The translations under genes were made by a program, and so were the position numbers. This document shows positions 12,472 through 62,306 of a stretch of 64,000 bases of DNA, one piece after another. Numbering within the stretch: position 1 is the first letter of the stretch; each line of letters begins with the position of its first letter. Location: the IMG/VR virus record IMGVR_UViG_3300045988_080648; one strand, written 5' to 3'. The notes under the pieces were generated by a model. It was not told where the DNA came from. It made no database searches and worked only from the letters and a program-made list of their open reading frames with translations. Source of the DNA: a virus.

Positions 12472-12474
12472 CAT

Positions 12475-12545
12475 GGAGTATTAAGCCCTGTTGGTAAGGG
12501 AACTAGACTGTCACTCTAGTAAAACTAAGGGTCACTTATATTCCG
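12475..12545 (+). tRNA. degenerate tRNA-like element. Acceptor GGAGTAT/ATATTCC, D arm CCCT-GTTGGTA-AGGG and an anticodon arm CTAGA-CTGTCAC-TCTAG (GTC, Asp-like) are present. The T arm is vestigial.
   Basis: Hand folding. Three of the four arms are convincing; the T arm region AAAACTAAGGGTCACTT is not canonical. Confidence 0.2.
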
Positions 12546-12690
12546 CAAATAATGGAGAGCACCTAGCAGTTAACTAGGTAGTTGTTAGAGGTAGCGGTGG
12601 CGATCCACGAGTATGCCTGATAGCTCAATGTATTATTAGAATATGGTCATGATAGTTCGCCCGTCTAATGCCATATTCGCTTTTATTTAA

Positions 12691-12763
12691 GCTTCTATAG
12701 CACAATTGACAGTGCAGCATTTTTGTAAAATGCAGGTTATTGGTTTGAGTCCAATTAGAAGCT
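12691..12763 (+). tRNA. tRNA-Thr (anticodon TGT)
   Basis: Acceptor GCTTCTA/TAGAAGC (7 bp). D stem GCAC/GTGC. Anticodon stem GCATT/AATGC with loop TTTGTAA. T arm ATTGG-TTTGAGT-CCAAT, whose T loop is TTT rather than TTC. Confidence 0.6.
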
Positions 12764-12774
12764 CTTTATTTATA

Positions 12775-12841
12775 TTTGAGGTGAGTGAAACGGCTTACAC
12801 CTCGAACTAAACGGTCATTGGTTTGAATCCAATACCTACAA
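12775..12841 (+). tRNA. tRNA-like remnant. A 9-bp hairpin TTTGAGGTG...CACCTCGAA is followed by a canonical-looking T arm ATTGG-TTTGAAT-CCAAT. No acceptor pairing was found.
   Basis: Hand folding. Only the T arm is convincing. Confidence 0.15.
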
Positions 12842-12864
12842 CTAATTAAAAAAAAATAAATAAT

Positions 12865-13341
12865 ATGGAAAAAACTTTTAATTATCAATCTGACGCAAAT
12901 TTTTATGATAAAAAGGATTTTATTATAGCTGTATTAAAAAGAAAAATAAATAGTTTTAAAGAGTATGATGCTGAAAGAAAAAAGCATTATGCTGGACTAG
13001 AACAAAAAATCGGAGAATTAGAATCCTATATAGATGAATTAGAAGATGGACTTAATATAGACTCTTTAAATAATAAGATTCAATCTTTAGAAAAGAAAGT
13101 TGAAAAACAAAATCTTAAAATTAAAGAATTACAAGCTAAAGTTAATATATCTTTATTTGATGATACTAAGTCTTTTGAAGAATTAAAATCTATAGCAAAT
13201 AATTTAAAGAACTTTAATAGTATGAAATTGGCTGTTAAAGATCTTAGAAAACGGCTTAAAGATAATAAAAATACTATATCTGATTTAATATATAAATTAA
13301 CACAAGCTAAACTTAAAATAAAACAATTAACTGGAGAGTAA
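12865..13341 (+). CDS. coiled-coil protein (158 aa) embedded in the tRNA island
   Basis: ORF track. Heptad-rich E/K/L sequence. Confidence 0.5.
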   Translation: MEKTFNYQSDANFYDKKDFIIAVLKRKINSFKEYDAERKKHYAGLEQKIGELESYIDELEDGLNIDSLNNKIQSLEKKVEKQNLKIKELQAKVNISLFDDTKSFEELKSIANNLKNFNSMKLAVKDLRKRLKDNKNTISDLIYKLTQAKLKIKQLTGE

Positions 13342-13351
13342 TCTCCAATTT

Positions 13352-13425
13352 GGGGCGTCGGCTCAAGTGGTCAGCACCTGCTTTGCACGCAGGCATTCTT
13401 AGGAGTTCGAATCTCCTACGCTCCA
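13352..13425 (+). tRNA. tRNA-Ala (anticodon TGC)
   Basis: Acceptor GGGGCGT/ACGCTCC with the G3-U70 alanine identity pair. Anticodon arm CCTGC-TTTGCAC-GCAGG is identical to the E. coli tRNA-Ala arm. T arm AGGAG-TTCGAAT-CTCCT. Discriminator A. Confidence 0.75.
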
Positions 13426-13437
13426 CTATTAAACAAT

Positions 13438-13515
13438 GTGAGATTAGTGTAGTTGAAGGCGCACATCACACTTCCAATGTGAAGGCTTGCGTGGGTTTGA
13501 TTCCCACATCTCACA
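13438..13515 (+). tRNA. tRNA-Gly (anticodon TCC). 78 nt, slightly irregular, with extra nucleotides at the D/anticodon junction and in the variable region.
   Basis: Acceptor GTGAGAT/ATCTCAC (perfect 7 bp). Anticodon arm TCACA-CTTCCAA-TGTGA. T arm GTGGG-TTTGATT-CCCAC. Confidence 0.55.
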
Positions 13516-13914
13516 CTATGATAAAGCTCTAGAATACTAGTTACAGGAGCAACGTAACTTATAGGGTGCCTCTCAACGATGCATACTCGCCTATTAGGTG
13601 TCGTAGAACCTACGAACTGGAATGGTTTGATGTTTTTTGCATTCCTACAGAATCCTAAATAATAAAAATAGAGACCATGTCTCTGACAGGGACCATTCCT
13701 GGGATTCTTAATTTTTTAAACTCTCCTCCTAGATATTTTATAAGTTAAACTTTAAATTTGATTTATTATGATGAGAATTTTAAAAAGAACTTTAAAAGCA
13801 TTTAAGAAGGGTTGGATTTGGTATGTTACTCAGTATTCTAGATTATACATGCCTCCAATTATTTAATCTTATTATTTAATTTGTAAGTACCAAAGGGGTA
13901 CTTACTGATGTTCG

Positions 13915-48811: not shown

Positions 48812-49263
48812 TAAGTAAAAAATCTTTTTTAGAGAAATTAAGAGTATTAGGTAATCAATACGCTAATAACATAGTACTTAATTCTAAGAATAAAGATGCT
48901 AAAGATATTATAATATCTGATTACTTACAAGGAGCATCAGATTCTTATGCTACTTTCAGAACTTATGATAAAAAAAGATTTTGTGATTCCTTAAGAGATA
49001 TTTTACATTATCAGAGAGAACTAAATAAACTCGAAGATACCTTAGGTTGTGAAATATGTGAATCATCTATATGTGAGTCTGTAACTTTTATTATAACTAG
49101 TTTAATAAGAGCTTTAGCTAATGATGATTCTGAAACTAGGGATGATATTGAATGGTGGCTATATGAAGATGTAGAAAAAGAATGGGTTATAGATGGAGAA
49201 CTTGTAAAAGTAGAAACTCCTGAACAATTTTATGATGCTTTAAAGAAATTGAATCGTGTCTGA
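48808..49263 (+). CDS. hypothetical protein (151 aa)
   Basis: ORF track. Confidence 0.45.
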
Positions 49264-50497
49264 CTTATTTGAAAAAGAATTTCAAACAAATGCTTATTTA
49301 GTATCTAAAGATGCTAAAGGTAAAGTTAGATGTGTAAGACTATGGTATGAGTGGAGTGATTCCGCTCATGCCTATCTTATTAAAAGACAGTCTTGGCAAT
49401 TAAATGGTAAAAGACTGGACCATCCAGATATTCCTATAAAGAAAGGATTAGTCAGTAGAACTCTTAGGGAACAAACTCAACTTCAGTTTAACTCTAAACT
49501 TAAAGAATATAAGGATAAAGGTTATAAAGAAGTTGAAGAAGATCCTGATAATAAAGATGAGAAAATAATTTTAAACTTTCTTCCTGAGTATAATACTGAT
49601 TCTTATAACCATATTAAACCTATGTTGGCTAAACAGGAGAAAAAAGTTATTAAACGAGAAATATTTGATAATGAATGGTTAGCTAGTAGGAAAATTAATG
49701 GATTAAGATGTTGTTTTTATTGGGATGGTAAACATATTAAAACTTACTCAAGAGGTGGGGAAAATTATGATTTATCTACCCAACATTTAACTAAACATCC
49801 AATTTTAATAGAAATTTTTAAAAAATTTCCAACATTAGTATTAGATTCAGAATTATATAAACACGGAAAATCTTTGCAACAAATATCTGGAGCAGCTAGA
49901 TTAGAAAGAAATGCAGTGGATTGTGATTGGTTAGAAATTTATTGTTATGATTGTTTCTTTACTAATAAAATGGGAGTTCCTGCAAAACAACGTGAATTAT
50001 TTCTTATAAAGCTATTTAAAAGTTATAACATATATGGATTTAATCCTATTAGAGAATGGCAACAAGGAGAACTTCAAATACAATTAGTACCCCAAGTAAA
50101 AGTATCAGGTTGGGAAAACATTGAAAAATTACATAATAAATATGTTTCTGAAGGATTTGAGGGTGTTGTATTAAGAGATCCTGATAAGCCTTATAAGCCA
50201 AACTCTAGGGGTAATCAAATGATAAAAGTAAAACATTACTTAGATGCTACTTATAAAGTTATCGACTATGAATTAGGGTTACGAGGTTCAGAGGATATGA
50301 CTTTTATTTTACAAATGCCTAATGGTCAAACTTTTAAAGCAAGTCCAATGGGAGATAGAGCTACAAAAGCTGATTATGTCGAAAATTTTGACAAAAAATA
50401 TAAAAATCATTTAGGGGATTGTAAATATTTTGAAATATCCGATAGTGGAATTCCTTGTCAACCAAAATTCACAGTATTTCGGTTTGATTTAGAGTAA
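49256..50497 (+). CDS. ATP-dependent polynucleotide ligase (nucleotidyltransferase motifs I KINGLR, III LDSELY, IV FEGVVLRD, V MIKVK). Unusually, motif I has Asn in place of the Asp of the KxDGxR consensus.
   Basis: ORF track. Ligase/capping-enzyme superfamily motifs in the canonical order. Confidence 0.6.
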   Translation: MSDLFEKEFQTNAYLVSKDAKGKVRCVRLWYEWSDSAHAYLIKRQSWQLNGKRLDHPDIPIKKGLVSRTLREQTQLQFNSKLKEYKDKGYKEVEEDPDNKDEKIILNFLPEYNTDSYNHIKPMLAKQEKKVIKREIFDNEWLASRKINGLRCCFYWDGKHIKTYSRGGENYDLSTQHLTKHPILIEIFKKFPTLVLDSELYKHGKSLQQISGAARLERNAVDCDWLEIYCYDCFFTNKMGVPAKQRELFLIKLFKSYNIYGFNPIREWQQGELQIQLVPQVKVSGWENIEKLHNKYVSEGFEGVVLRDPDKPYKPNSRGNQMIKVKHYLDATYKVIDYELGLRGSEDMTFILQMPNGQTFKASPMGDRATKADYVENFDKKYKNHLGDCKYFEISDSGIPCQPKFTVFRFDLE

Positions 50498-50586
50498 TAC
50501 TAAAATTTTACTAAAAATATCTAGACTAATTATTTTTAATAGACTATATTGATACTATTAATTAAAATGTTAAAATATTTTTAGTA

Positions 50587-51795
50587 ATGACAAAAAAGGA
50601 AAAATTTATTACTCAATCAATTGAAAAATTTGGTGACAAATTTGATTATTCTAAAGTAACAGATATTAATAATAAAGAAATAGATAAAATTACAATTATA
50701 TGTCCTATACATGGTGAATTTGAGACTACTCCTAAATCATTTTTAATATCTAAATATGGTTGTAAAAAATGTGCTAACCAACAAAAAGGAAAACATTATC
50801 GAACAGATAAAAATAATTTAAGTTCTGTTGATACACATATCCCACATATAGAAAATCCTATTATATCAAAATCTTTAGTTGTGGGTACTGTATACTGTTT
50901 TATTAATAGTATTAATGGTAAAAAATATATTGGAGAAACAGTAAAGAAAGATTATACTGTTAGATTTAATGAACATAGAAGTAAAAGTGAAAGAGGAGTA
51001 GTAACTTATTTCTATAATGCTATCCGAAAATATGGATGGGATGCTTTTAATAAATATATCATATATCAAACTGAACCATATGAAGATACTGAGGAGAATA
51101 GAAAAAAATTAAATGATATTGTAAATAAAAAAGAAATTGAGTTTATTAATAAATACAATACTACAAATCCTAATTTTGGCTATAATTTAACAAAAGGAGG
51201 AGACGGAGTTTTAGGTTACCATTTTTCTAAAGAAACCAAAGAAAAAATGAGTAAATCTCATCAAGGAGAAAAACATTGGAATTATGGTAAAAGAAATGAA
51301 GGTAAATCTAGAGCAATTTTACAATTTGATTTAGATGGAAATTATATAGCAGAGTTCCCATCTATGGCAGAAATTACACGACAATTAGGATATAAAGCTA
51401 ATAATGTATGCAGATGTTGTGATAATTTAATAGGTTCTTATATGGGATATATTTGGGTACGAAAAGATGATTATTATGAAGGCTATATTCAAAAATACAA
51501 ATCAAGAGTAAAATGTAAATCTAATGATAAGGAAGTTTTACAATATACTTTTTTAGGAGATTATGTAGCTTCCTATATAAGCTGTGCAGAAGCAAAAAGA
51601 ACTTTAAAAATGGGATATAGCCCTTCAGGAGCTGCCTCTGGAACTGATTTTTCAGCAGGAGGTTATATATGGATATATAAAAAAGATTTTACAGAAGATT
51701 TATTAAAAGAAAAATTAGAGCTTGTAAAAAGTAGTCGTAATTATAAAAAAATTGTGAGTAATCTTAGACAGGCAGCTTTAATTAATCGTAATTAA
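50587..51795 (+). CDS. free-standing GIY-YIG homing endonuclease (GIY-YIG core VYCFINSINGKKYIGET ... YFYNAIRKYG; NUMOD3-like repeats KEKMSKSHQGEKHW)
   Basis: ORF track. GIY-YIG and NUMOD motifs. Confidence 0.65.
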   Translation: MTKKEKFITQSIEKFGDKFDYSKVTDINNKEIDKITIICPIHGEFETTPKSFLISKYGCKKCANQQKGKHYRTDKNNLSSVDTHIPHIENPIISKSLVVGTVYCFINSINGKKYIGETVKKDYTVRFNEHRSKSERGVVTYFYNAIRKYGWDAFNKYIIYQTEPYEDTEENRKKLNDIVNKKEIEFINKYNTTNPNFGYNLTKGGDGVLGYHFSKETKEKMSKSHQGEKHWNYGKRNEGKSRAILQFDLDGNYIAEFPSMAEITRQLGYKANNVCRCCDNLIGSYMGYIWVRKDDYYEGYIQKYKSRVKCKSNDKEVLQYTFLGDYVASYISCAEAKRTLKMGYSPSGAASGTDFSAGGYIWIYKKDFTEDLLKEKLELVKSSRNYKKIVSNLRQAALINRN

Positions 51796-51807
51796 ACAAT
51801 TATATTA

Positions 51808-52122
51808 ATGAGTTCTACAGCTGATAGAAGTAATGGTAAAATACTTAGGAATTATATATATGCTAATATATCTTTACATAAATTAGCTAAAATTCTTATA
51901 GAAGATTGGCAAATAGCAGATAGACAAAGATTTCCTAGTATTTATAAATTATTTTCACTTAATTGCCCCCGATATGGAGCTCAAATAAACGCTTTTATAG
52001 ATATTTTGGATATTAAATATTATTGGTATATTTTATATCCTATTATAAAAGAAATAAATTCAGAAGTATTAAGTGAATATGATGAGCATTTGTATAATGA
52101 AATAAAAAATTCTTTATTATAA
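51808..52122 (+). CDS. hypothetical protein (104 aa)
   Basis: ORF track. Confidence 0.4.
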   Translation: MSSTADRSNGKILRNYIYANISLHKLAKILIEDWQIADRQRFPSIYKLFSLNCPRYGAQINAFIDILDIKYYWYILYPIIKEINSEVLSEYDEHLYNEIKNSLL

Positions 52123-52811
52123 TGGCTAAAATTTGCGTACTAAGTGACCTACATGGTCATCTACCAAGAATTGAACCTTGTGAGTTAGTATTAATAGCAG
52201 GAGATATAGTTCCTTTAAATATTCAATTTGATAATGCTGAATCTACTTTATGGTTTTTAGATGAATTTACAAAATGGATTGATTCTCTTCCTTGTGATGA
52301 AGTTATTATGGTTGCAGGTAATCACGATAAGCTTATAGAAAGAGCCTCTTTCATAATTCATGCAGTAGAATCTAAAACTGATTTTAAACTTACATATTTG
52401 TCAGGAACTACTTATGAATATATAGCTAGGAATCTTAAACATTATAAAATATACGGCTCTCCTTTCTGTCATAAGTTTGGTAACTGGTCATTTATGCAAA
52501 GTGAGGAATGGTTAAAAGATTATTATAATAATATTCCAGAAGATACTGATATAATTTTAACTCACGATACTCCAATGTTAGGTGATTTAGATTTATTACC
52601 TCCTAATCAATGGAATCCAAAAGCTGTTCACGCTGGAGGTAAATCTTTAGCAGATGCTATTTGTAGAGTACAACCTAGATATGTATTTTGTGGGCATTTA
52701 CATACTTGCAAAGACAAATATTTAAAATTAAATAATACTGAAATATATAACGTATCTATATTAGATAATAATTATAAAGAGATTTATAAACCATTATACT
52801 TGGATATTTAA
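52122..52811 (+). CDS. metallophosphoesterase (motifs SDLHGH, AGDIV, AGNHD)
   Basis: ORF track. MPE motifs. Confidence 0.6.
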   Translation: MAKICVLSDLHGHLPRIEPCELVLIAGDIVPLNIQFDNAESTLWFLDEFTKWIDSLPCDEVIMVAGNHDKLIERASFIIHAVESKTDFKLTYLSGTTYEYIARNLKHYKIYGSPFCHKFGNWSFMQSEEWLKDYYNNIPEDTDIILTHDTPMLGDLDLLPPNQWNPKAVHAGGKSLADAICRVQPRYVFCGHLHTCKDKYLKLNNTEIYNVSILDNNYKEIYKPLYLDI

Positions 52812-52812
52812 A

Positions 52813-53148
52813 ATGAAAGACGTAGTAGCTAATGAAAAATTACCATACATTCCGGAGACCTTTACTCTCGGATGTCACACCTTCAAAGTACAATTATACG
52901 AAGAATTATACGATGGCAACGACCCATTATATGGACAATTCGATTATGATGAGCAGGTCATTAGACTTAGAATATTTAAAGATAATGGTGAGCCTTTATC
53001 AAGGGAATGTGTTCTTAACACATATTATCATGAGCTTTTCCACGCCTTTAACTATTTGTGGAATACTGGAGGCGATGAATCGCTTGCTAGTACTTTTGCA
53101 ATGTTAATGTGCGAGTACGAAACATCTAGAAAATATGCCAAAGAATAA
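52813..53148 (+). CDS. hypothetical protein (111 aa)
   Basis: ORF track. Confidence 0.45.
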   Translation: MKDVVANEKLPYIPETFTLGCHTFKVQLYEELYDGNDPLYGQFDYDEQVIRLRIFKDNGEPLSRECVLNTYYHELFHAFNYLWNTGGDESLASTFAMLMCEYETSRKYAKE

Positions 53149-53449
53149 AATAAAAGTTCCGAAAGTATTAATAGAAAAGAAACCTAAAGTTAAATATGTT
53201 TCTCCTATTAAAGATTATTCAGTATCTTATGATGCAGTTATTAAGATTAGACAAACAAGTCTTCAACCAGTAATACCTGCTAAAATTAGAACTGATAAAA
53301 GAAACTTCGTTGGAAAACTTCCTGAAGAAGTTCTTAATCAATTATCTAAAATTATATCAGAAGCTATTAAATCATCGTGCTCTTTCTGCACAGAAGTAGT
53401 TTCTGTAGATAATATAAAATTTGATCAAACTTTAATAAAAGAAGACTAA
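53135..53449 (+). CDS. hypothetical protein (104 aa)
   Basis: ORF track. Confidence 0.45.
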   Translation: MPKNKIKVPKVLIEKKPKVKYVSPIKDYSVSYDAVIKIRQTSLQPVIPAKIRTDKRNFVGKLPEEVLNQLSKIISEAIKSSCSFCTEVVSVDNIKFDQTLIKED

Positions 53450-53793
53450 TGATTTATTTTATTATAGAGGATTCTCATTTTGGCTCTCATGTAGAACAAA
53501 TATCTACTGACTTTAATAAATTACGGGAAAATTTTCCTGATAAAGTAATCTATACTACAGATTATATGAATGTAGATGATACTTTATATAATATAGTAGA
53601 TTATTCTAATATGCCGTATAAACCTTATGATGGTACTGAAATAACTAATTGTTACTTATATCGTAATAATTTTTATGAGTGTGATGAAGATTTGCCAGAA
53701 GAATTAGATCCAGATGAATATATGTGTACCTATTATAGAACTTACACAAAAGGTTCTCTAACTTCAACATGGCATAAAGATGGCTGGGAATAA
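53449..53793 (+). CDS. hypothetical protein (114 aa)
   Basis: ORF track. Confidence 0.45.
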   Translation: MIYFIIEDSHFGSHVEQISTDFNKLRENFPDKVIYTTDYMNVDDTLYNIVDYSNMPYKPYDGTEITNCYLYRNNFYECDEDLPEELDPDEYMCTYYRTYTKGSLTSTWHKDGWE

Positions 53794-54604
53794 TTTAATT
53801 ACAGACGATAGTGAAGCACTACAAGCTTATCTAAATAACATTACTTATTCTACCCCATTATCTTTAGAGGAAGAGAAAGAATGTGCTGATACTGGAAATT
53901 GGGAGAAATTAGTAAATGCTAATTTAAAGTTTGTAGTAACTGTAGCTAAAAAGTTTCAGAATAAAGGATTACCTTTATCTGATTTAATAGCTGAAGGAAA
54001 TATAGGTCTTATTCATGCTAGCCATTTATATAAAAGTGAGTATAATGTTAAATTTATAACTTATGCTGTATGGCATATAAGTGAAGCTATTCGTAGAGCT
54101 ATTCATTATAAAGCAGATACTGTTAGAGTTCCTGTAAGTCAAAAGCTTACTTATAATAAGGCTGCTAAAGTTATAAATAAATACTGGCAAACTGAAGATA
54201 GACCTCCATCAGATGATGAATTAGAGGAAGCTACTGGTAAAACCATGAAACAAATTAATGGAGCTATAAATGCTAAAAAAATATGTATGTCTTTAGATAC
54301 TCCATTAGGTAGTAATGGTGATGATGATGATTCTACTTTAGTAGATATTGTTAAAAATAATAATAGTCCTCTAGCAGATAATAATATAGAACAAGCTTAT
54401 AAGACTAATGTCATTAACAAAGTTTTAAATGGACTTTCTAATAAAGAACATGACATAATAATTTTATGCTATGGATTTACTGGGCAAGAATACACTCCTG
54501 AACTTATATCTCCTTTATTTGGATGTACGCCAGAACGTATTAGACAAATTAGGAAAGAAGCAATCAAAAAACTTAGAAAAAGAAAAATTCTTAAAAACAT
54601 TTAA
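53780..54604 (+). CDS. sigma-70 family RNA polymerase sigma factor (region 2 LVNANLKFVVTVAKKF...DLIAEGNIGLIHA; region 4 near the C-terminus)
   Basis: ORF track. Conserved sigma-70 region 2.1-2.4 pattern. Confidence 0.65.
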   Translation: MAGNNLITDDSEALQAYLNNITYSTPLSLEEEKECADTGNWEKLVNANLKFVVTVAKKFQNKGLPLSDLIAEGNIGLIHASHLYKSEYNVKFITYAVWHISEAIRRAIHYKADTVRVPVSQKLTYNKAAKVINKYWQTEDRPPSDDELEEATGKTMKQINGAINAKKICMSLDTPLGSNGDDDDSTLVDIVKNNNSPLADNNIEQAYKTNVINKVLNGLSNKEHDIIILCYGFTGQEYTPELISPLFGCTPERIRQIRKEAIKKLRKRKILKNI

Positions 54605-55825
54605 ATGATTTATTTAGTTACCAAGGTTAAAGCTTTATTCAAATCTTCTAAATATGAATGTATTTCTGTAGAAAAAAGTAAAGAAATTATTAATTCTATG
54701 AAAAAAATTAGAGGATTAGATACTGAGACTATGGGATTAAATCCTCATACTAAAGCATTATTAACAGTTCAGATAGGTACTAAAGAAAATCAAGTAGTAA
54801 TTGATTGCACTACTATAAATATTTGGGAATATAAAGATATATTAGAAGATTCCAATATTTTATATATCTTAGCTAATGCTAAATTTGATATCCAATTCTT
54901 CTTTAAACATAACATTATATTATCTAAAGTATGGGATGTAATGTTAGCTGAAAAGATTAGATATTTAGGATATCCTAAAGGTAGTTTCCATGCTGACTTA
55001 AAGACCCTTGAATACAAATACCTTAATAAATATATGGATAAAACTGTTCGAGGTAAAATTACTAAAGTTGGTCTAACTGAAGAAGTAATAGTTTATGCAG
55101 CTAATGATGTAGTAGATTTGGAAGATTTAATGAATGCCCAAATAAAAGCTTTAGAAAAAGAAGAGTTGGTAAAGGCAGTACAATTAGAGAATAGATTTGT
55201 TATTCCATTAGCTTATATGGAATGGTGTGGAGTAAAATTAGACGTAAAAAAATGGAAAGCTAAAATGGTAAAAGATGCTAAACGTTTAAAGATTGCTCTA
55301 ACTAAATTAAATGATTGGGTAGTAAAACATTATGGAAAAGACTCTAGATTTACTAAAGTAGATTTACAAGGAGATTTATTTTTAGGATTTAATACTGACC
55401 CACAGTGTGCTATAAATTGGAATAGTGCAGCTCAAGTAATTCCATTATTCAAAGCTATTGGAATAAATACTTCTACTATAGATAGTAAAACAAGGAAATT
55501 AAAAGATTCTGTAGATGCTAAATTATTAGAGCCTCAGGCTAAGGATTTTGAAATTCTTCCTATTTATCTAGATTATAAAGAAGCTCAAAAAGTATGCTCT
55601 ACTTATGGACAAAACTGGCTAGACCAAATAAATCCTGAAACTGGTAGAATATATACTAAATTTAATCAGTTAGGCACTAATACTGCCAGAATATCTAGTG
55701 GTGGAAAAGATAAAAATGCTCAAATAGAATATGTAAATTTTCTTAATCTTCCAGCAGATCCAGAAACTAGAAGTTGTTTTATCGCAGAGAAAGGTAACTC
55801 TTGGATTTCCATAGACTACTCGGGT
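54605..55825 (+). CDS. polA: family-A DNA polymerase, exon 1 (3'-5' exonuclease motifs LDTETMGL, ANAKFDIQFF, YAANDV; polymerase motif TGRIYTKFNQLGTNTARISS; ends in motif A ...ISIDYSG)
   Basis: ORF track 54605-55834, trimmed to the inferred splice donor. Confidence 0.65.
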
Positions 55826-56146
55826 AAAAAATAAACATATAAACTATAACATTTTTATAGTATATTTTGAATAATCTATCCGTAAATAAATCAGAGGATG
55901 TGTTAAAAATGTTTTATAGTTTATATCATAATGCTCATTATTTTCTAAAAAGAAAATATGAAAAATTTGGCCCCCTTGTAAGGAAACTTACAGGTGAAAA
56001 CCTCGTAAATTCAGTTAATGAACGGGCATTATCAAAGACTGAGCCAAGCCTTATAATAAAGGAAGGTGCAGAGACTAGAAACGAGGAGCCTAAAATAAAT
56101 GATTAAATTTATCATGGCTGAGGTATAGTCCAGCGTGTTTACGTAG
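55826..56146 (+). mobile_element. group I-type intron 1 in polA (about 320 nt). It contains only a 79-aa ORF (55867-56106) with no recognisable endonuclease motif. The 5' exon ends in T and the intron ends in G (the G of TAG).
   Basis: Splicing joins DYSG to QESFIMASISNDKALIHELMEGSGDLHSLTA, which is motif A and its continuation. Confidence 0.5.
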
Positions 56147-56343
56147 CAAGAAAGTTTCATTATGGCTTCTATCTCTAATGATAAAGCTTTAATACATGAA
56201 TTAATGGAAGGAAGTGGAGATCTACATTCTCTAACTGCCTATATGAGTTATCCTGATCAAATACCTAGAGATACAAAAATAACAGAAATTAAAGAAAAGT
56301 ATCACCATCTTAGACAAGAAGCCAAAGGAATAGAATTTGCCAT
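56147..56343 (+). CDS. polA: polA exon 2 (motif B region ...RQEAKGIEFAI)
   Basis: ORF track 56162-56353, with boundaries re-set from the splice-site reasoning. Confidence 0.5.
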
Positions 56344-57606
56344 TAATCCTTAAATTATTGCAATTTTTATTTTGATATAATTCGCTATAAACTATATTAC
56401 TATTAATAAATATTTTAGTAATATGGATATAGAAAAAGAATTAAAAATCAAAAGCTTGTATGAAAAAGATACAAAGATTAGTGAAATTTTAAAGATTTGT
56501 AAATGTAGTAGTGCTACAGTAAATAAAGTAAGAGAAAAATATAATTTACCTAAAAGAAGGAATTCCCCCTCAAAGATTCCTATAAATGAATCTTTAGTAG
56601 TAAAATTATATACCGAAGGAGTAATATTAACTGAAATTACAAAAACTTGTCATTGCAGTACCAACACTGTCTCAGCAATACTAGATAAATATAATATTCC
56701 AAAACGTTCTCAGAGAATAAATAAAAAACCTAATAAGGATTTAAGTAAATTTATGGATTTAACTTCTCCAGAAACTCAATATTGGATAGGATTTATATGT
56801 GCCGATGGCAATATAAATTATAATCCAGAAAAAAGAGCTTATAAAGTTTCTCTATTTAGTAAGGATGAAGAAGTCATAATTAAATTTATAAAATATTTTG
56901 GAGAAAATACAGTTTGTAGAAGTGACAGACCTACAGGTATAAAAGAAGCCTATATATGCTCTAAAGAACTTTGTGAATATTTTATTAATGTATTAAATAT
57001 TACTCCTAATAAGTCTCTTACATTAAATCCTAATATTGAGTATACTAACAATTTTATTTTAGGCTATTTTGATGGAGACGGAAGCATTAGAAACAGTTCA
57101 GAAAAACAAATTAGATACGAGTGTAATATTACTTGTGCTAGTAAAATATTTTTGGATAAAATAAAAACTATACTTGATAAAAATGGTATTTATTCTATTA
57201 TTTATCAACATACTGATTGTAATGCTTACAAAATTAGAATAGATAGAAAAAGTGAATCTGAAAAATTTTATCATTTTTTATACAAAGATGCAGTAGTTTG
57301 TTTATCAAGAAAATTGAAAAACTTTGTGGCACTCTATGGAAACATAGAGAATGAAAAATTGGGTGAATTGCAGGAACTTAAGGAAAATCTGCAGCCAAGC
57401 CAACCTTTAACAAAGTTGGAAGGTTCAACGACTAACTCTTGAAACTTCGTAAGAAGAATATAATAGAGACACGAGTGCCCAACACCTAAACTATAAAGCA
57501 AGGTGATGAAATAGTCTAGCCTATATGGTAACATATAGAGTCTCAGATAAAGAGCTGAGAGTTAATACAAGCGAAATTATGGTGGTGATTTTAACACTAT
57601 TCATCG
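56344..57606 (+). mobile_element. group I-type intron 2 in polA (about 1.26 kb) carrying a LAGLIDADG endonuclease gene. The 5' exon ends in T and the intron ends in G (57606).
   Basis: Splicing yields EFAINKGISIEEAKKIYENYMSGFSGLAKYQEY, the canonical motif B plus downstream helix. The 3' part contains ACACGAGTGCCCAACAC and TATGGTAACATATAGAG blocks shared with other introns. Confidence 0.5.
56423..57442 (+). CDS. intron-encoded LAGLIDADG homing endonuclease (motifs IGFICADGNI and GYFDGDGSI)
   Basis: ORF track. Confidence 0.7.
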   Translation: MDIEKELKIKSLYEKDTKISEILKICKCSSATVNKVREKYNLPKRRNSPSKIPINESLVVKLYTEGVILTEITKTCHCSTNTVSAILDKYNIPKRSQRINKKPNKDLSKFMDLTSPETQYWIGFICADGNINYNPEKRAYKVSLFSKDEEVIIKFIKYFGENTVCRSDRPTGIKEAYICSKELCEYFINVLNITPNKSLTLNPNIEYTNNFILGYFDGDGSIRNSSEKQIRYECNITCASKIFLDKIKTILDKNGIYSIIYQHTDCNAYKIRIDRKSESEKFYHFLYKDAVVCLSRKLKNFVALYGNIENEKLGELQELKENLQPSQPLTKLEGSTTNS

Positions 57607-58042
57607 AAACAAAGGTATCTCTATAGAAGAAGCTAAAAAAATATATGAAAATTATATGTCTGGTTTTTCAGGATTAGCTAAATATCAAGAGTATTGTAGA
57701 AAGATAGTGATGGAAAAAGGCTATATACTTTTAAATCCTATAAGCAAATATAGAGCACATATATATGACTTTGAATCTCTACGTTCAATGCAAGAAAAAA
57801 TGCAAGATAGGGAATTTTGGAAGTATTATAGAGAAATGAAACGAGAATCTCCTAACTGTGATACAGTACAAGAAGTACGAGATTTCTTTAAGAAAAAAGG
57901 TGAATGTGAAAGGAATAGTATAAATTATAGAATACAACACACTGGAGCTTTATGTTATAAAGTAAGTATGATTTATTTCTTTAAATGGATAGTAGAAAAT
58001 AATCTTTTTAATAAGGTTTTAATTACTATTACTCCCTACGAT
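57607..58042 (+). CDS. polA: polA exon 3 (GYILLNP...ERNSINYRIQHTGA...; ends ...ITITPYD immediately before the Glu of motif C)
   Basis: ORF track 57656-58048, with the frame open from 57590. Confidence 0.5.
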
Positions 58043-58898
58043 AAATAATCTTGTCGTAGTAAAACGATGTTAATTGCTTGGAACTCCTAAAGATTTAATT
58101 ACTAAATTATTGAAATAATAAACTAGTAAAAATATTAAATATGATTTTACCTCAGTTAAAAGAAATGGACAATAAGCAGCTTTATAATTTTACAAGAGAA
58201 CAAACTCAAGTATTTTTAACAGGATTGCTAGGTGATGGATGTATATCCACTACAAATAGTGGTAGTTATATTTATACCACAAATTGTAAACATCTTGAAT
58301 ATTTAGAATTTAAAAAGAAATTATTAGGTAAAGGAAATATTAAACTTCAAAAAAGAAATGGCTATCCTATATATACTATGTATGGAGGAGCTTACCCAGA
58401 ATTATATGAGTTTAAAGAATTTACTGTTCAAGATGTTATTGAAAACTTAGATTTACTTGGGTTAGCATTATGGTTTTATGATGATGGCAGCCTTCATAAA
58501 AGAGATTTATATTATAATTTAAATACTCAAAAGTTCCCAAAATATATACAAGAAGGAATTTTTATTCCATGGTTTAATTCCTTAGGCATTAAAGCTAATT
58601 TAAGACATGATACAAAAAGAGGAAAAGAATTGTATTATTTAGGAATTAATAAATATGAAGGAGCTAATATTATTAGTGAAATACTATCACGTTATCCATT
58701 AGATTGTTACTCTTATAAATTATGGAGTTCAGAGACTATCCTTAAATGGAGTAAGCTGCAAGAGCAGGTGAAAAGCATCGATGAAAATCTTACTAATAGG
58801 CAGTTAGCTTATAAGTGGAGATTTTTATAAGATATAGTCCGAACCTATATGAAAGTATAGGAGAATATATGGAATCGATATATTCGTAACAATATATG
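58043..58898 (+). mobile_element. group I-type intron 3 in polA (about 856 nt) carrying a LAGLIDADG endonuclease gene. The 5' exon ends in T and the intron ends in the G of ATG (58898).
   Basis: Splicing yields ...VLITITPYDEINCEVPIEIAEKV..., which aligns to motif C LLQVHDELVLEVP with Tyr in place of His. It contains the ATAGTCCGAACCTATATGAAAGTATAGG block. Confidence 0.5.
58141..58830 (+). CDS. intron-encoded LAGLIDADG homing endonuclease (motifs LTGLLGDGCIS and LWFYDDGSL)
   Basis: ORF track. Confidence 0.65.
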   Translation: MILPQLKEMDNKQLYNFTREQTQVFLTGLLGDGCISTTNSGSYIYTTNCKHLEYLEFKKKLLGKGNIKLQKRNGYPIYTMYGGAYPELYEFKEFTVQDVIENLDLLGLALWFYDDGSLHKRDLYYNLNTQKFPKYIQEGIFIPWFNSLGIKANLRHDTKRGKELYYLGINKYEGANIISEILSRYPLDCYSYKLWSSETILKWSKLQEQVKSIDENLTNRQLAYKWRFL

Positions 58899-59060
58899 GA
58901 GATTAATTGCGAAGTACCTATAGAAATAGCTGAAAAAGTGGCTACTAGACTTCATGCTATTATGGTTAGAGCAGGAGAAATATTTTGTACTAGATGTAAG
59001 TTGGATGCAGATATTTCTAGATGTAAAGATGGAACATTACCTAATTATTGGATTCATTAA
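58899..59060 (+). CDS. polA: polA exon 4 (EINCEVPIEIAEKVATRLHAIMVRAGEIFCTRCKLDADISRCKDGTLPNYWIH; C-terminal pol-A tail)
   Basis: Hand translation. It aligns to the family-A polymerase C-terminus (EVP...VPL.VD...G.NW..H). Confidence 0.5.
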   Translation, partial: EINCEVPIEIAEKVATRLHAIMVRAGEIFCTRCKLDADISRCKDGTLPNYWIH

Positions 59061-59061
59061 A

Positions 59062-59295
59062 ATGGAAATAACTTACATTTGTAACGACTATTCACTATAT
59101 ATCGACGGCAAAGAATTCGTTGATATAGATTACGACAAACAGAAAGAAATTTGTCATAAATTAGTAGATAAAGTTTCCGAAGGAATTTTACAAAGATTTA
59201 TAGAAGTTGCTTGCATTGGAATGGGCGAGTATGAACAAGTAGATTATTGTGAAACTCATGGAGATTTTGTTGATAAATACGTAATAAATATATGA
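59062..59295 (+). CDS. hypothetical protein (77 aa, MEITYICNDYSLYIDGKEF...). The track's ORF 58954-59295 is this gene with a spurious 5' extension in the polA exon 4 region.
   Basis: TAAAATGG junction after the polA stop. Confidence 0.45.
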   Translation: MEITYICNDYSLYIDGKEFVDIDYDKQKEICHKLVDKVSEGILQRFIEVACIGMGEYEQVDYCETHGDFVDKYVINI

Positions 59296-59437
59296 TTTTT
59301 ATTATAACTAATAAAGATGGTTCTAGAACTCAGTATTCTAACCATTATGACGAAGATGACGAAATGGAAGTAGATGCTGCATGGGATGATGTATATGCAA
59401 AATTCCCTGAAGCTGATTATATTGAGCGATTTTAATT

Positions 59438-59656
59438 ATGGCTAGTAATTCACCAACGTTAATGCAATCTGAAGAGAGATTTTTAGATAATCTTAACACA
59501 GATATTCCTTTGAAAGAAGAAGATTATACAATATGTTTTTGTATAAGTAAACAAATTTCTACAACTAATATTGAAGATGTTTGTAAATCTTTGCAAAATC
59601 GTTTTTTAAGTGAAGGATGGAGCATTGATGATTTTGATTCAGAAAAGAATGAGTAA
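59438..59656 (+). CDS. hypothetical protein (72 aa)
   Basis: ORF track. Confidence 0.4.
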   Translation: MASNSPTLMQSEERFLDNLNTDIPLKEEDYTICFCISKQISTTNIEDVCKSLQNRFLSEGWSIDDFDSEKNE

Positions 59657-60083
59657 ATTAATTATAACAAGGGGTATACCTTCATCGGGTAAAACCTTTT
59701 GGGCTAAGCAATGGGTTCTTGAAGACCCTGAACATAGAGTTAGAATTAATCAAGATGATATTCGACTTATGCTTGGTAAATATTGGGTTCCAAGTAGAGA
59801 GAAATTAGTACAAGAAATACAATTCGATGCAATGATTGAAGCATTAAATAGAGAATTTGATGTAGTTATTGATAATACTAATTTAAATAAAAAAGTCTTA
59901 GAAGGATTTGACCGTTTAATTAAAACTTTTGAAGATTGCGAAATAGAATATAAAGATTTTTTCGACACTCCTTTATCTGTATGTATCGAACGTGATAAAA
60001 ATAGAGATTTGCAGGTTACAGAGAAAGTTATTAGAAATTTTTATAACAATTATAAAGATATATATCCTTTAAATGGTAGATAA
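59649..60083 (+). CDS. polynucleotide 5'-kinase, P-loop kinase domain only (Walker A ITRGIPSSGKT; similar to the T4 Pnk N-terminal domain). Likely start MSKLIITRG...
   Basis: ORF track 59610-60083. P-loop plus downstream RINQDDIR pattern typical of Pnk/adenylate-kinase-like folds. Confidence 0.55.
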   Translation: MSKLIITRGIPSSGKTFWAKQWVLEDPEHRVRINQDDIRLMLGKYWVPSREKLVQEIQFDAMIEALNREFDVVIDNTNLNKKVLEGFDRLIKTFEDCEIEYKDFFDTPLSVCIERDKNRDLQVTEKVIRNFYNNYKDIYPLNGR

Positions 60084-60681
60084 TTTTAATATATTTACTC
60101 CTTGGTTTGATAATCTCTCAGACCAAGGAGATTTTTACTTTGTACAAGTAATACAAAGAAAAAAAGAATGTAATATAGGTAGTAATAATAATGTAATTAA
60201 AGATTATCATTTCTTTGATAAGAAATCTTTTTTAAATAAAAAAGAAGAAATAGTTACATTATGTAAAACTTTTAATGCTCGGGCATATTTTTGGGTAAAT
60301 CCCAGAAATTGTAAACAAGTACAATACGAGATAATTAGAGAAGCTCTAGAAGCTATAGAATGTAATTCTAAGAAGTTATTTAAATGTGTCTCTAAAGCAA
60401 TAGGTCAAAGAAGAAATACTAATTATAAATCTAAATGGGTATTAGATTTTGATACTAAAGATTGGAGTCTTATAAATAAATATTTAGATTTAGTTAGGAA
60501 ATGTAGACCTAATGTAAATAAAATATTATACTATGTTCCTACAGTAAATGGCATTCATGTAATTACTCTAGGATTTGATTTAGGGCAATTTAAGCAAAAG
60601 GTAGCTATAGCTAAATTAGATAATATAGATATACACAAAGATAATCCATCAGTACTTTATTATGATGCTTTTAATAATTGA
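60073..60681 (+). CDS. hypothetical protein (202 aa)
   Basis: ORF track. Confidence 0.5.
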   Translation: MVDNFNIFTPWFDNLSDQGDFYFVQVIQRKKECNIGSNNNVIKDYHFFDKKSFLNKKEEIVTLCKTFNARAYFWVNPRNCKQVQYEIIREALEAIECNSKKLFKCVSKAIGQRRNTNYKSKWVLDFDTKDWSLINKYLDLVRKCRPNVNKILYYVPTVNGIHVITLGFDLGQFKQKVAIAKLDNIDIHKDNPSVLYYDAFNN

Positions 60682-60857
60682 TATAATTATTGTAATTATC
60701 TATGGCATAGCTTTAATAGCTATGCTAATTACAAAAGCTTCTTCAGATGAAATTATAGCAACTACTGCAATATATTGTATAGCAGCTACTATAGTGAATG
60801 GAATAATACATCTATATCCTTAGATAAATTGTTTTTATAATTTTAATAATATTTGTT

Positions 60858-61064
60858 ATGTTTTTTAATAAAACTTTTACTGACGAACTTTCTAGTATTA
60901 AATCTACTCACGATAAAACTACTTCCCTTATAGAGAGAATGAATACTAAAATCACATCTAAAGAAAGTTCTATTAAAGAATTACAGAATGAAATTAAGGA
61001 TATTGAAAATATTAAAGCTCAAGCAGATAATTTCGTAGTTAATCTTAAAAATATTCTTGCTTAA
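60858..61064 (+). CDS. hypothetical coiled-coil protein (68 aa)
   Basis: ORF track. Confidence 0.4.
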   Translation: MFFNKTFTDELSSIKSTHDKTTSLIERMNTKITSKESSIKELQNEIKDIENIKAQADNFVVNLKNILA

Positions 61065-61429
61065 TGTATAAAATAAAAGAAACTTTTGAGTATCTTGTAA
61101 ACGATCCAAATAACTTTTGCTCAGTACATGATGCCTTAGAAATGGATACAAGTATACCTTGCCCTTGTTGGGAGGGAAGTAAAGTTCCTGTAAATGAAAA
61201 AGGAGAAGTAGAGTATATTCCGTGGGGTAATAGTAAAGTATCTATTACTGATATAGATAATACTGTAAAAATTGATAAGGACACTCTTTTAAAGCTAATT
61301 AGAAACTCTGAAAAATTATTAACATTAGAAGAGAATGGAGTGGATAATTGGATAAATTATGGTGAAGCCATGCAATATTTAGATGATTCATCTGATGAAG
61401 TATTACTTAAACAATATTTAGATGATTAA
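61064..61429 (+). CDS. hypothetical protein (121 aa)
   Basis: ORF track. Confidence 0.45.
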   Translation: MYKIKETFEYLVNDPNNFCSVHDALEMDTSIPCPCWEGSKVPVNEKGEVEYIPWGNSKVSITDIDNTVKIDKDTLLKLIRNSEKLLTLEENGVDNWINYGEAMQYLDDSSDEVLLKQYLDD

Positions 61430-62306
61430 TTTTGAAAATAAAAAAGTACTGTTCATTGATTTAGACGGTACTTTAATTAAGACTATTTCAGGTAAAACAT
61501 TTCCTGAAGACATTACTGATTTTAGAGTACAACTTCCTGTATTGGATAAAATTAAAGAGAAGATGCCTAATCTTAGGCATTTCTATATAGTATCTAATCA
61601 AGGTGGTATAGGTAAATTTATATCTGAGGCGGATTTTAAGACTAAAATAGGAGCCATTAGTGATTTATGTTTTTACTATTTAAATAAACGTAAATTACTT
61701 ATGTATTATGATTATATATATTGTGCTTCTAATGATAAGAATGACCCTAATAGAAAGCCTAATACTGGAATGCTAGAGAAGTTATGTTATGATCATAATC
61801 TTTCTTACAATAAACAAGAAATGATTATGATAGGAGATGCTTCTGGTAAACCTGGAGATTTTTCAGATTCAGATAAAAAATGTGCTGAGAATTTTGGCAT
61901 AGATTATATTGACGTTAGAGACTTTTTAAAAATGAAATTAAGACTAGACGAATATTATTATATACTTAATGAAAATTATGGATTGGAAGAAATAGAAGAC
62001 TATATGCCTGAGGATATGGCAGACAAATATTTAGAATTTTGTAAATCCCATAACTCAGATGAAGTAGATGATTATTTAAAAAGATTATATTCGTATATAG
62101 AGGTAGTAAACCTTGAATATACTATTCTTGATATTGACTTAGAAAAAGGTTATGCTGAATATAAGGCGATTATAAAAGTTAATAATAAGTATTATTCTTT
62201 TGATTATTATCAAAGTCCATATTGGGGTTTTAAAGACAGAGTAGATGAAGATATAGATTTAACAGAAATATTTCCAAAAGAGATAACTACAGTTATATAT
62301 GTATAA
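61422..62306 (+). CDS. HAD-superfamily polynucleotide 3'-phosphatase-like protein (motif I FIDLDGTLI, motif II SNQ, motif III-IV GDASGKPGDFSDSD) with a C-terminal extension
   Basis: ORF track. HAD motifs in the order typical of the Pnk phosphatase domain. Confidence 0.55.
   Translation: MINFENKKVLFIDLDGTLIKTISGKTFPEDITDFRVQLPVLDKIKEKMPNLRHFYIVSNQGGIGKFISEADFKTKIGAISDLCFYYLNKRKLLMYYDYIYCASNDKNDPNRKPNTGMLEKLCYDHNLSYNKQEMIMIGDASGKPGDFSDSDKKCAENFGIDYIDVRDFLKMKLRLDEYYYILNENYGLEEIEDYMPEDMADKYLEFCKSHNSDEVDDYLKRLYSYIEVVNLEYTILDIDLEKGYAEYKAIIKVNNKYYSFDYYQSPYWGFKDRVDEDIDLTEIFPKEITTVIYV

Follow-up and report, generated by a model that had tools for sequence, protein, structure and literature searches.

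The window, a 64,000-nt stretch of DNA from a gut crAss-like phage, encodes an ATP-dependent DNA ligase similar to the African swine fever virus (ASFV) enzyme (49256..50497, + strand), a stand-alone polynucleotide 5'-kinase of the T4 Pnk type (59649..60083, +) and a PNK3P/HAD-IIIA 3'-phosphatase domain (61422..61934, +). All three genes were present with intact catalytic motifs, and the matches of each were well above the chance level. The stop codon of the kinase gene is overlapped by 11 nt by orf202 (60073..60681, +), whose small product has a primase-polymerase (AEP)-like fold. Throughout the crAss-like phages, orf202 was syntenic with the kinase or with Pnkp. Four tRNA genes (Asn, Thr, Ala and Gly; 12391..13516, +) were found by ARAGORN and Rfam. 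They precede the ligase by ca. 36 kb and show no linkage to the repair genes. These searches gave no further tRNA-like elements in the window, even at E ≤ 1, and the tRNA set of the nearest relative differed from that of the window. An earlier reading made from the sequence alone (the sequence-only reading) had described an RNA-repair toolkit alongside an island of several tRNAs and pseudo-tRNAs. The three genes were borne out, but not the adjoining tRNAs, nor, as described below, the 294-aa ORF as a single phosphatase or the intermediate character of motif I of the ligase.

The ligase ORF encodes 413 aa from a GTG start and is laid out as an N-terminal domain, an adenylation domain and an OB domain. 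It matched Pfam DNA_ligase_A_M (E 1e-23) and phrog_114, and its sequence-profile matches in the PDB were all DNA ligases (24/24), with 6imj as the best (E 1.5e-21). When the AF2 model (pLDDT 89) was compared using Foldseek, the ASFV ligase was the top match (E 2e-27, ca. 435 aligned columns), and the top 50 fold matches were all DNA ligases, with no RNA ligase among them. Motifs I, III, IIIa, IV, V and VI, the last of which lies in the OB domain, were kept in the ligase family (120 homologues). The grouping of the ligase with DNA ligases is firm, and this is one half of the evidence that the sequence-only reading had named as able to overturn it. The enzyme would serve as a phage replication or repair DNA ligase and would seal nicks in duplex DNA via the usual lysine-AMP mechanism.

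The closest solved relative of the crAss-phage ligase family is the ASFV DNA ligase (AsfvLIG, NP419L; PDB 6imj/6imk/6iml/6imn), which was both the best sequence match and the best fold match of the window ligase. The two are of similar length (413 and 419 aa), have the three-domain layout in common and were aligned over their full length including the N-terminal domain, although the N-terminal domains did not align at the sequence-profile level and the identity was ca. 21% in the structure-based alignment. N148, L207 and Q402 of the window ligase correspond to Asn153, Leu211 and Gln403 of AsfvLIG, which are among its nick-site residues (Chen et al. 2019, PMC6344480). At the position of AsfvLIG Leu402, the window ligase has Cys, while the consensus of the phage family is Leu.

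Motif I of the window ligase reads K146-I-N148-G-L-R151, and this had been taken as intermediate between the DNA-ligase and Rnl2 signatures. Among the 120 homologues, 56 have Asn at this position and 64 have Asp; about half of the phage family thus carries the canonical Asp, unlike AsfvLIG. Judging from this alignment, KINGLR is motif I of a DNA ligase in which Asn has replaced Asp, as is common within the family, and the Asn is a lineage polymorphism. Two loci (L050 and L051) have an Asn-type ligase as well as a dedicated RNA ligase, and Asp was found in 12 of the 15 typed loci of clade A, the clade of the window, all of them without an RNA ligase. Since Asn occurs beside an RNA ligase, and since most phages without this enzyme have Asp, the presence of Asn does not follow the loss of the RNA ligase and is no adaptation to a role on both DNA and RNA.

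These observations bear on the proposal that the window encodes a working, non-canonical tRNA-repair counter-defence, with the KINGLR ligase joining nicked DNA as well as cleaved tRNAs whose ends the kinase and the phosphatase have healed. The kinase and phosphatase genes are indeed intact, the ligase gave a weak secondary match to Pfam RNA_ligase (E 1e-6, 29.6 bits), and there is, as had been stated, no second ligase among the larger ORFs of the window, nor another ligase in the nearest complete relative. However, the OB domain with motif VI, the DNA-binding-type, ASFV-like N-terminal domain, the fold matches, the distribution of Asn and Asp and the distance of the tRNA genes all argue against this proposal, and the repeated deletion of the kinase in the clade, described below, would be unexpected for a complete and useful pathway. 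We consider it very improbable, and a ligase serving both replication and RNA repair was not supported.

The true start of the kinase is the ATG at 59649, and its length of 144 aa was the same in 120 homologues and in gp61 of phage crAss001. It matched Pfam AAA_33 and phrog_505, and its only matches among solved structures were T4 Pnk (1ly1, E 1.5e-9) and the RNA-repair enzyme Pnkp1 (4xrp), in agreement with its previous identification as a stand-alone Pnk kinase. K15, S16 (Thr in the window), D35, R38, E57 and R126 of T4 Pnk, whose roles have been described (PMC2831316), were conserved in the alignment. In the T4 enzyme, Arg38 and Glu57 make up a tunnel that takes single-stranded termini; mammalian PNKP, which is specific for DNA nicks, lacks them (PMC2831316). 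The window kinase was also 54% identical to residues 6-143 of a fused Pnkp (306 aa) found in other crAss-like phages, a protein with AAA_33 and HAD_PNKP domains encoded in distant crAss-like loci, while the HAD_PNKP domain was not found in the window, in its nearest relative MT835492.1, in clade A or in the sister phages (clade B). By homology, the kinase is the N-terminal half of a T4-type bifunctional Pnkp.

The phosphatase, whose DxDGT motif reads F-I-D-L-D-G-T, matched Pfam PNK3P (E 1.8e-24) and the phosphatase of mammalian PNKP (1yj5, E 3e-9). In NCBIfam, the match to HAD-SF-IIIA was above the cut-off and that to DNA-3'-Pase (E 2e-19) was under it; the best family matches were DNA 3'-phosphatase/PNKP. 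Its nearest family comprises the DNA 3'-phosphatases of mammalian PNKP, yeast Tpp1 and plant ZDP (Pfam PNK3P, TIGR01664), and it could be aligned with mouse PNKP across HAD motifs I to IV. Unlike these enzymes, the window protein has neither an FHA nor a kinase domain, stays under the NCBIfam equivalog cut-off and is fused to an unrelated 124-aa protein. Homologous phosphatases are separate genes of 166-172 aa ending in ...DFLEL and a stop codon. The window has lost this stop codon through a 2-bp deletion, by which the downstream 124-aa gene (61932..62306, +; ATG at 61932) is fused in frame, resulting in a 294-aa ORF. The 124-aa gene, which was delimited by alignment with MT835492.1 and the C-termini of the homologues, gave no family match. 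The fusion is real, since it is also present in an independent assembly (ERR4563048, 99.75% identity). The sequence-only reading was thus right in placing a Pnk-like 3'-phosphatase at 61422 as a gene separate from the kinase, but the phosphatase ends at 61934, and the remainder of the ORF to 62306 is the extra fused gene.

The AEP-like fold of orf202 resembles LigD-Pol and PrimPol, and the kinase is translationally coupled to orf202. Given the DNA-family matches of the phosphatase and this coupling, a role at DNA ends fits as well as a role on RNA. By analogy with eukaryotic PNKP acting with a polymerase and a ligase, or with bacterial LigD, the kinase, orf202, the PNK3P phosphatase and the ASFV-type ligase could clean, fill and seal damaged DNA ends with 5'-OH and 3'-phosphate groups, protecting the phage genome from host nucleases. 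A gene for a T7 gp5.9-like RecBCD inhibitor directly upstream of the phosphatase, the similarity of the ligase to the ASFV repair ligase and the retention of the phosphatase and orf202 in clade A, where the RNA ligase was not found, are consistent with such a function. On the other hand, the kinase retains the counterparts of T4 Arg38 and Glu57, every phage with the RNA ligase keeps the kinase while most of those without the RNA ligase have it deleted, and the position upstream of orf202 is occupied in related phages by RNA enzymes, namely a Thg1-like or fused Pnkp gene beside a CCA-adding-type enzyme. DNA end repair is, in our estimation, a possible but rather doubtful function of these genes.

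The phages of clade B encode a dedicated 457-aa RNA ligase with the motif KIHGMS. This protein matched phrog_968 'RNA ligase' over its full length (E 2e-30) and Pfam RNA_ligase (E 1e-5), is homologous to mycobacteriophage genes annotated as 'RNA ligase' and showed a weak DraRnl/Rnl5-type match (DRB0094 family) in its N-terminal part only. In clade B, the RNA ligase and the kinase were each found in 24/24 and PNK3P in 21/23, while clade A had the RNA ligase in 0/18, an intact kinase in 4/18 and PNK3P in 12/16. When the sister-clade RNA ligase was used in tblastn, no match was obtained in the window or in the 121.6-kb MT835492.1, so that no second ligase beyond the window came to light in the nearest complete relative. 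Clade A genomes other than those with an intact kinase carry deletion scars of the gene; there are three different internal deletions, all retaining the 5' and 3' ends of the gene, which may be nested and hence reflect fewer than three independent events. The correlation between the kinase and the RNA ligase rests on essentially two clades and is not phylogenetically independent. From synteny with one more distant group only, we infer that the RNA ligase was lost rather than gained.

The kinase would convert 5'-OH to 5'-phosphate and the phosphatase 3'-phosphate to 3'-OH, and in related crAss-like phages these two end-healing activities and the dedicated RNA ligase would mend cleaved RNA in the manner of T4 Pnkp and Rnl. 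In distant crAss-like phages, fused T4-type Pnkp, CCA-adding-type and Thg1-like genes lie in one module. Since a T4-Pnk-like kinase and RNA-repair genes occur in sister and distant phages, RNA repair is a real theme within the crAss-like phage group; the RNA-repair reading thus holds at the family level but not for the window itself. In the lineage of the window, an ancestral fused Pnkp would have been reduced to its kinase half, the unrelated PNK3P-type enzyme would serve as the phosphatase instead, the RNA ligase is missing and the kinase has been deleted from most sister genomes. On these grounds, we lean towards the view that the kinase and phosphatase of the window phage form an incomplete, probably decaying end-healing module, presumably for RNA, beside an orthodox DNA ligase, and that they do not constitute a complete counter-defence system. 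Both genes are nevertheless intact, with catalytic residues kept and high conservation (the kinase is 90% identical to the clade B alleles), which suggests that they are still under selection and that the term 'remnant' may understate their current use. The two enzymes probably remain active.

Phage T4 Pnkp (PseT) and RNA ligase 1 repair tRNA cut by an anticodon nuclease. The kinase domain of T4 Pnkp is homologous to the window kinase, in which counterparts of the P-loop, Asp35, Arg38, Glu57 and Arg126 are kept; the window also encodes a HAD-superfamily 3'-phosphatase with a DxDGT motif, to which a dedicated RNA ligase is added in the sister phages. In contrast to T4, the window kinase forms a protein of its own (144 aa) that lacks a HAD_PNKP domain of the T4 type, the phosphatase is from another HAD family (PNK3P/HAD-IIIA) and is encoded 1.3 kb from the kinase, an RNA ligase was not found in the window or MT835492.1, and that of the sister clade is not Rnl1-like. 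In Bacteroides phage crAss001, gp61 ('polynucleotide kinase', 144 aa) is an ortholog of the window kinase with 58% identity and, as in the window, is located downstream of PolA. The split between kinase and phosphatase is already annotated in crAss001 (gp61 and gp60, the latter as 'polynucleotide kinase/phosphatase'). Unlike the window phosphatase, gp60 adjoins the kinase; it belongs to the BT0820 type of HAD phosphatases, and no similarity between it and the window PNK3P could be detected. No annotated ligase was found in the half of the crAss001 genome examined, which holds the replication module.

T4 Pnkp can also act on mononucleotides in vitro, and the kinase and phosphatase genes of the window sit among those for dUTPase (47389-48811), NrdD (35676-37445) and ThyX, the last just downstream; NUDIX genes are also part of the nucleotide-metabolism set of this phage. 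The kinase and phosphatase might act on 3'-NMPs or 3'-dNMPs released by breakdown of host nucleic acids and, with these enzymes, feed the nucleotide pool of the phage. The tight co-occurrence with the RNA ligase in clade B and the descent of the kinase from a bifunctional Pnkp speak against salvage, and we know of no established salvage role for this kinase/phosphatase family; we regard it as unlikely.

The Deinococcus radiodurans locus DRB0094-DRB0100 (cf. PMC1997131) encodes the RNA ligase DraRnl (Rnl5-type), a Pnkp (kinase/phosphatase) and an ATP-dependent DNA-ligase-like gene. These three kinds of gene are also combined in the sister-clade phages, whereas the locus is bacterial, damage-induced and of another domain organisation, and the window has no RNA ligase. 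A context gene of the window encodes a calcineurin-type metallophosphoesterase (52122..52811, +; Pfam Metallophos, E 3e-13), whose closest solved relative is MPPED2; in clade B, the metallophosphoesterase gene lies two genes downstream of the RNA ligase.

The window is from a human-gut crAss-like phage (Crassvirales). The region containing the ligase, kinase and phosphatase genes shared ca. 93% identity with the unannotated 121.6-kb genome MT835492.1 across the 69% that aligns, and the remaining matches in the phage collection were crAss-like phages. The plus strand of the window carries a replication and nucleotide-metabolism module, which includes genes for a DnaB-like helicase, primase, NrdD, a Dda-like helicase, dUTPase, DNA ligase, a metallophosphoesterase, a sigma factor, PolA and ThyX. 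Homing endonuclease genes were frequent in the window and interrupted several module genes: the dUTPase gene (47389-48811) was split by an HNH gene, and two LAGLIDADG genes (56423-57442 and 58141-58830) cut the PolA gene (54605-59060) into pieces. A GIY-YIG gene (50587-51795) that is missing from MT835492.1 adjoined the ligase gene, and ligase alleles just 67% identical were found in genomes that were elsewhere 93-97% identical. The late genes of MT835492.1 (63.7-120 kb; loci L003 and L004) lie on the minus strand, and their long ORFs need TAG as a sense codon; the number of late ORFs of at least 250 aa rose from 2 under the standard code to 18 when TAG was read as sense. TAG recoding is already known in crAss-like phages (PMC7886860). 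No suppressor tRNA was found in MT835492.1 or in the window with ARAGORN.

Four tRNA genes (Asn, Thr, Ala and Gly) were located at 12391-13516, 36 kb from the ligase gene, and a search for further tRNA-like elements, hidden tRNAs or pseudo-tRNAs near this island gave none even at E ≤ 1. The sequence-only reading had described several pseudo-tRNAs and a tRNA island alongside the repair genes, and neither description held. The tRNA set of MT835492.1 (11783-13885; Asn, Asp, Met, Tyr and Ala) differed from that of the window despite the ca. 93% identity. An SPFH/flotillin-like protein of 517 aa is encoded at 7535-9088, followed at 9151-11184 by a 677-aa protein of phrog_1735, a conserved family with no assigned function (E 3e-202).

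The ligase (49256-50497) is, by its sequence, an orthodox ATP-dependent DNA ligase and is predicted to seal nicked duplex DNA. Among its 120 closest homologues (51-100% identical, all but one covering at least 96% of the query), K146 and G149 of motif I (K146-I-N-G-L-R151) were invariant and R151 was present in 119, with position 148 occupied by Asp in 64 homologues and by Asn in the other 56. Motifs III, IIIa, IV and V (L196-D-x-E199-L-Y, Y231-D232, E302-G-x-V-x-R307 and K324-x-K326) were invariant or nearly so. The Pfam DNA_ligase_A_M model matched over its entire length (positions 1-204 of 204) with 84.6 bits against a cut-off of 26.2, as compared to 29.6 bits for the Pfam RNA_ligase model. 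Residues 329-408 formed a beta-rich C-terminal domain in the AF2 model that aligned with the OB domains of the African swine fever virus (ASFV), Chlorella virus, T4 and T7 ligases, and P400, Q402, P403 and R409 of motif VI were conserved. With KINGLR in place of KxHGxN as motif I, an OB domain and motif VI, the protein does not fit the Rnl2-type or any other RNA ligase class. A profile of the family matched 24 solved structures, every one a DNA ligase, and the top-50 fold matches of the AF2 model (pLDDT 89) were likewise DNA ligases only, with no RNA ligase in either set.

AsfvLIG, the ASFV DNA ligase, ranked first in the sequence comparison (E 1.5e-21) as well as in the fold comparison (E 2e-27). 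The Foldseek alignments of the whole protein extended over ca. 435 columns (targets of 403-412 residues; TM 0.62-0.65) and spanned its full length with the N-terminal domain included. Chen et al. (2019; PMC6344480) reported the N-terminal domain of AsfvLIG as a completely novel fold and gave Asn153, Leu211, Leu402 and Gln403 as residues of the nick site that only this enzyme has. At these positions the window ligase has N148, L207, C401 and Q402, and the family consensus at C401 is Leu; both its N-terminal domain and its nick-site residues thus place it in the ASFV-type subfamily. From this match and the aligned nick-site residues, KINGLR is an ASFV-type variant of the DNA-ligase motif I and no step towards Rnl2, the motif I Asn being common to the window ligase and the biochemically proven ASFV enzyme. 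The earlier placement of KINGLR between DNA ligases and Rnl2 was rejected on the basis of the motif conservation and of the profile and fold matches. The same reading had proposed a dual-use ligase that completes a non-canonical tRNA-repair system; all three enzymes turned out to belong to known families, the proposal found no support, and dual use now appears very improbable. The ASFV DNA ligase has been proposed as a drug target, and its supposedly unique active-site residues and N-terminal domain recur in the ligases of crAss-like phages, which make up a large family. A 2009 paper (PMC2806865) put forward a bacterial or phage source for the ASFV ligase, and no published tie between this ligase and crAss-like phages specifically was found.

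The kinase starts at 59649 (59649-60083; 144 aa), as read previously. Its only solved relatives were T4 Pnk (E 1.5e-9) and the Capnocytophaga RNA-repair enzyme Pnkp1. The P-loop G-x-x-x-x-G-K-T, Asp36 and Arg39 were present, as were a Glu and an Arg at the positions of Glu57 and Arg126, so that the counterparts of T4 Lys15, Ser16 (Thr in the window), Asp35, Arg38, Glu57 and Arg126 are all kept. Lys15, Ser16, Asp35, Arg38 and Arg126, and also Asp85, are essential in T4 Pnkp, and Arg38 and Glu57 are T4-specific, mammalian PNKP lacking both (PMC2831316). The position of Asp85 is occupied by Asn, with an Asp one residue before (V-V-I-D-N-T-N-L-N versus V-I-I-S-D-T-N-L-N in T4), and the same I-D-N arrangement is seen in gp61 of crAss001. 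The polypeptide stops after the kinase domain, without the C-terminal HAD_PNKP that T4-type enzymes carry on the same chain. A canonical fused Pnkp of 306 aa, composed of an AAA_33 kinase and Pfam HAD_PNKP, is present in distant crAss-like phages; its residues 6-143 shared 54% identity with the window kinase, and its HAD_PNKP domain gave no tblastn match in the window, MT835492.1 or 42 related loci. On this evidence the stand-alone kinase is a truncated Pnkp. In other crAss-like lineages, the same module contains more RNA-end enzymes (locus L120, 11-787 and 1418-2338; locus L048, 14083-14850), namely the fused 306-aa T4-type Pnkp, a CCA-adding-type nucleotidyltransferase (Pfam PolyA_pol head domain) and a Thg1-like protein.

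That the kinase and phosphatase are separate genes was borne out, and crAss001 is annotated likewise with a split pair, gp61 (kinase) and gp60 (phosphatase). The gp61 protein shared 58% identity with the window kinase, but gp60 belongs to a HAD family different from that of the window phosphatase. Orthology of gp60 to the window phosphatase, or to orf202, the gene downstream of the kinase, was considered and rejected, as there was no similarity to either. Neither a Thg1-like gene nor a gp60-type gene was found in the window.

Residues 8-163 of the phosphatase (61422-61934) matched Pfam PNK3P (E 1.8e-24; 86.8 bits against a cut-off of 22), and its HAD motifs (F-I-D-L-D-G-T, S-N-Q, R-K-P and G-D-A) aligned with those of mouse PNKP, the nearest solved structures being the mammalian PNKP phosphatase domain. 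NCBIfam HAD-SF-IIIA scored 55.2 against a cut-off of 44.6. The closest family was the DNA 3'-phosphatase equivalog TIGR01664; since its score of 69.9 bits was under the curated cut-off of 107.65, DNA specificity is not established. The protein is a PNK3P/HAD-IIIA member whose substrate is not readable from the sequence. Although all three ORFs of the previous reading are real, its 294-aa phosphatase proved to be two fused genes. Among the 120 best homologues, 119 were 162-174 aa long and matched the N-terminal 58% of the 294-aa ORF only; they end in DFLEL, with the stop codon overlapped by the ATG of the next gene. In the window, a 2-bp deletion unites the phosphatase frame with that of the downstream 124-aa gene (61932-62306). 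An assembly artefact was rejected because the same fusion occurred in an independent assembly of 99.75% identity.

For the comparison, 38 loci were retrieved by way of the gene that directly follows the kinase, and four context loci and MT835492.1 were added. The loci sorted into two clades, clade A containing the window and clade B its sister phages, and the truncated loci L025 and L043 were assigned to neither. Clade B phages have larger genomes and encode a 457-aa protein, its motif I being KIHGMS, from a gene located between those of the DNA ligase and the metallophosphoesterase. The protein matched phrog_968 'RNA ligase' over the full length (E 2e-30) and Pfam RNA_ligase (E 1e-5), and was homologous to mycobacteriophage genes annotated 'RNA ligase'; 'RNA ligase' genes of Lak phages were also related, and there was a weak DraRnl-type N-terminal match. 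The gene lies at 2962-4335 of locus L007 and is also found in L006, L008, L009, L027-L047, L050 and L051. A search of the window for a second ligase (Pfam on the 19 ORFs that reach 250 aa and on several smaller ones, PHROGs on unassigned ORFs, and tblastn with the 457-aa RNA ligase) gave none, in agreement with the previous statement that the ligase is the only one. An RNA ligase beside the healing enzymes was likewise absent from MT835492.1, whose TAG-recoded late proteins were covered by tblastn only.

All 24 clade B loci had the RNA ligase and the kinase, and 21 of 23 had PNK3P, whereas in clade A the RNA ligase was present in 0 of 18, the kinase in 4 of 18 and PNK3P in 12 of 16. Kinase presence differed by clade (Fisher test, 6e-8), the two clades not being independent samples. 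In the clade A genomes without the kinase, internal deletions left the first 22-43 nt and last 20-50 nt of the gene; these scars took three distinct forms, which may be nested rather than independent. Since a more distant group (L050 and L051) keeps the RNA ligase at the same position together with the kinase and an orf202 homologue, loss of the RNA ligase in clade A is the more parsimonious course. Of 15 clade A loci typed at ligase position 148, all without the RNA ligase, 12 had Asp, and L050 and L051 combine an Asn-type DNA ligase with the RNA ligase. The motif I Asn thus bears no relation to whether the RNA ligase is present, and the idea that it compensates for an absent RNA ligase was rejected.

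The window kinase allele was 90% identical to clade B as compared to 78-79% to its clade A peers, and the phosphatase allele 85-88% as compared to 66-74%, yet the genes flanking both are of clade A type. The kinase and phosphatase genes have thus been exchanged as cassettes, the phosphatase cassette having the 2-bp fusion at its 3' boundary.

The healing enzymes are kept with the RNA ligase and the kinase is eroding without it; this co-retention therefore supports the enzymes working together. Our preferred reading, which we hold to be somewhat better than even, is that the ligase is the phage DNA ligase, with the kinase and phosphatase as the healing half of a pathway for RNA repair; the sister phages have this pathway complete, and in the window lineage, without the RNA ligase, it is being lost. 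A nucleotide-salvage role of the kinase and phosphatase seems improbable. The main rival is a role of the kinase, phosphatase and ligase in DNA-end repair. The family affinity of the phosphatase and the resemblance of the ligase to the ASFV repair ligase favour it, as do the overlap of orf202 with the kinase stop codon and the RecBCD-inhibitor-like gene adjoining the phosphatase; we regard it as possible, at about one chance in several. The latter gene (61064-61429; 121 aa), of which the C-terminal 41 residues match the T7 gp5.9 RecBCD-inhibitor family (Pfam PF25708, E 4e-9), is directly upstream of the phosphatase in both clades.

The pattern of joint retention in clade B and kinase erosion in clade A provides a natural experiment within one abundant human-gut phage group and identifies phage pairs suited to a test of RNA-repair counter-defence. 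We found no papers treating Pnk or RNA ligase in crAss-like phages, the RNA ligase search covering the open-access literature. The window has two calcineurin-type metallophosphoesterases (52122-52811 and 42057-43037). The former is nearest to MPPED2-type phosphodiesterases and in clade B is placed two genes downstream of the RNA ligase; because of this position it could serve to open 2',3'-cyclic phosphate ends, degradation of nucleotide signals being another possible role.

The orf202 gene (60073-60681) has an 11-nt overlap with the kinase stop codon, and the two genes are translationally coupled. Pfam and NCBIfam gave no match to it, nor did any named PHROG. A primase-polymerase (AEP)-like fold was predicted for the protein (pLDDT 96), in which DxD and GxH motifs are conserved. 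A sequence-profile search against the PDB and a Pfam search on longer family members gave no matches, and a fold search against viral structures returned uncharacterised proteins only. At 50% identity the unannotated family falls into about 1,360 clusters, and it travels with Pnkp: a Pnkp or kinase ORF was present within 3 kb upstream of the orf202 homologue in 49 of 55 distant crAss-like loci. The family might, though this is doubtful, be an undescribed partner of end-healing enzymes; if so, a new phage-encoded heal-fill-seal pathway for DNA or RNA ends would consist of the kinase, orf202, PNK3P and the ligase of ASFV type. The Asn-type ligase might also share the low fidelity of the ASFV enzyme. 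All component families are already known, as is the split pair of crAss001; what is new, at a modest level, is the pattern of erosion, the link between crAss-like and ASFV ligases and the association of orf202 with Pnkp, and these amount to no new kind of system. In loci L048 and L049, a Thg1-like gene fills the slot directly upstream of the orf202 homologue.
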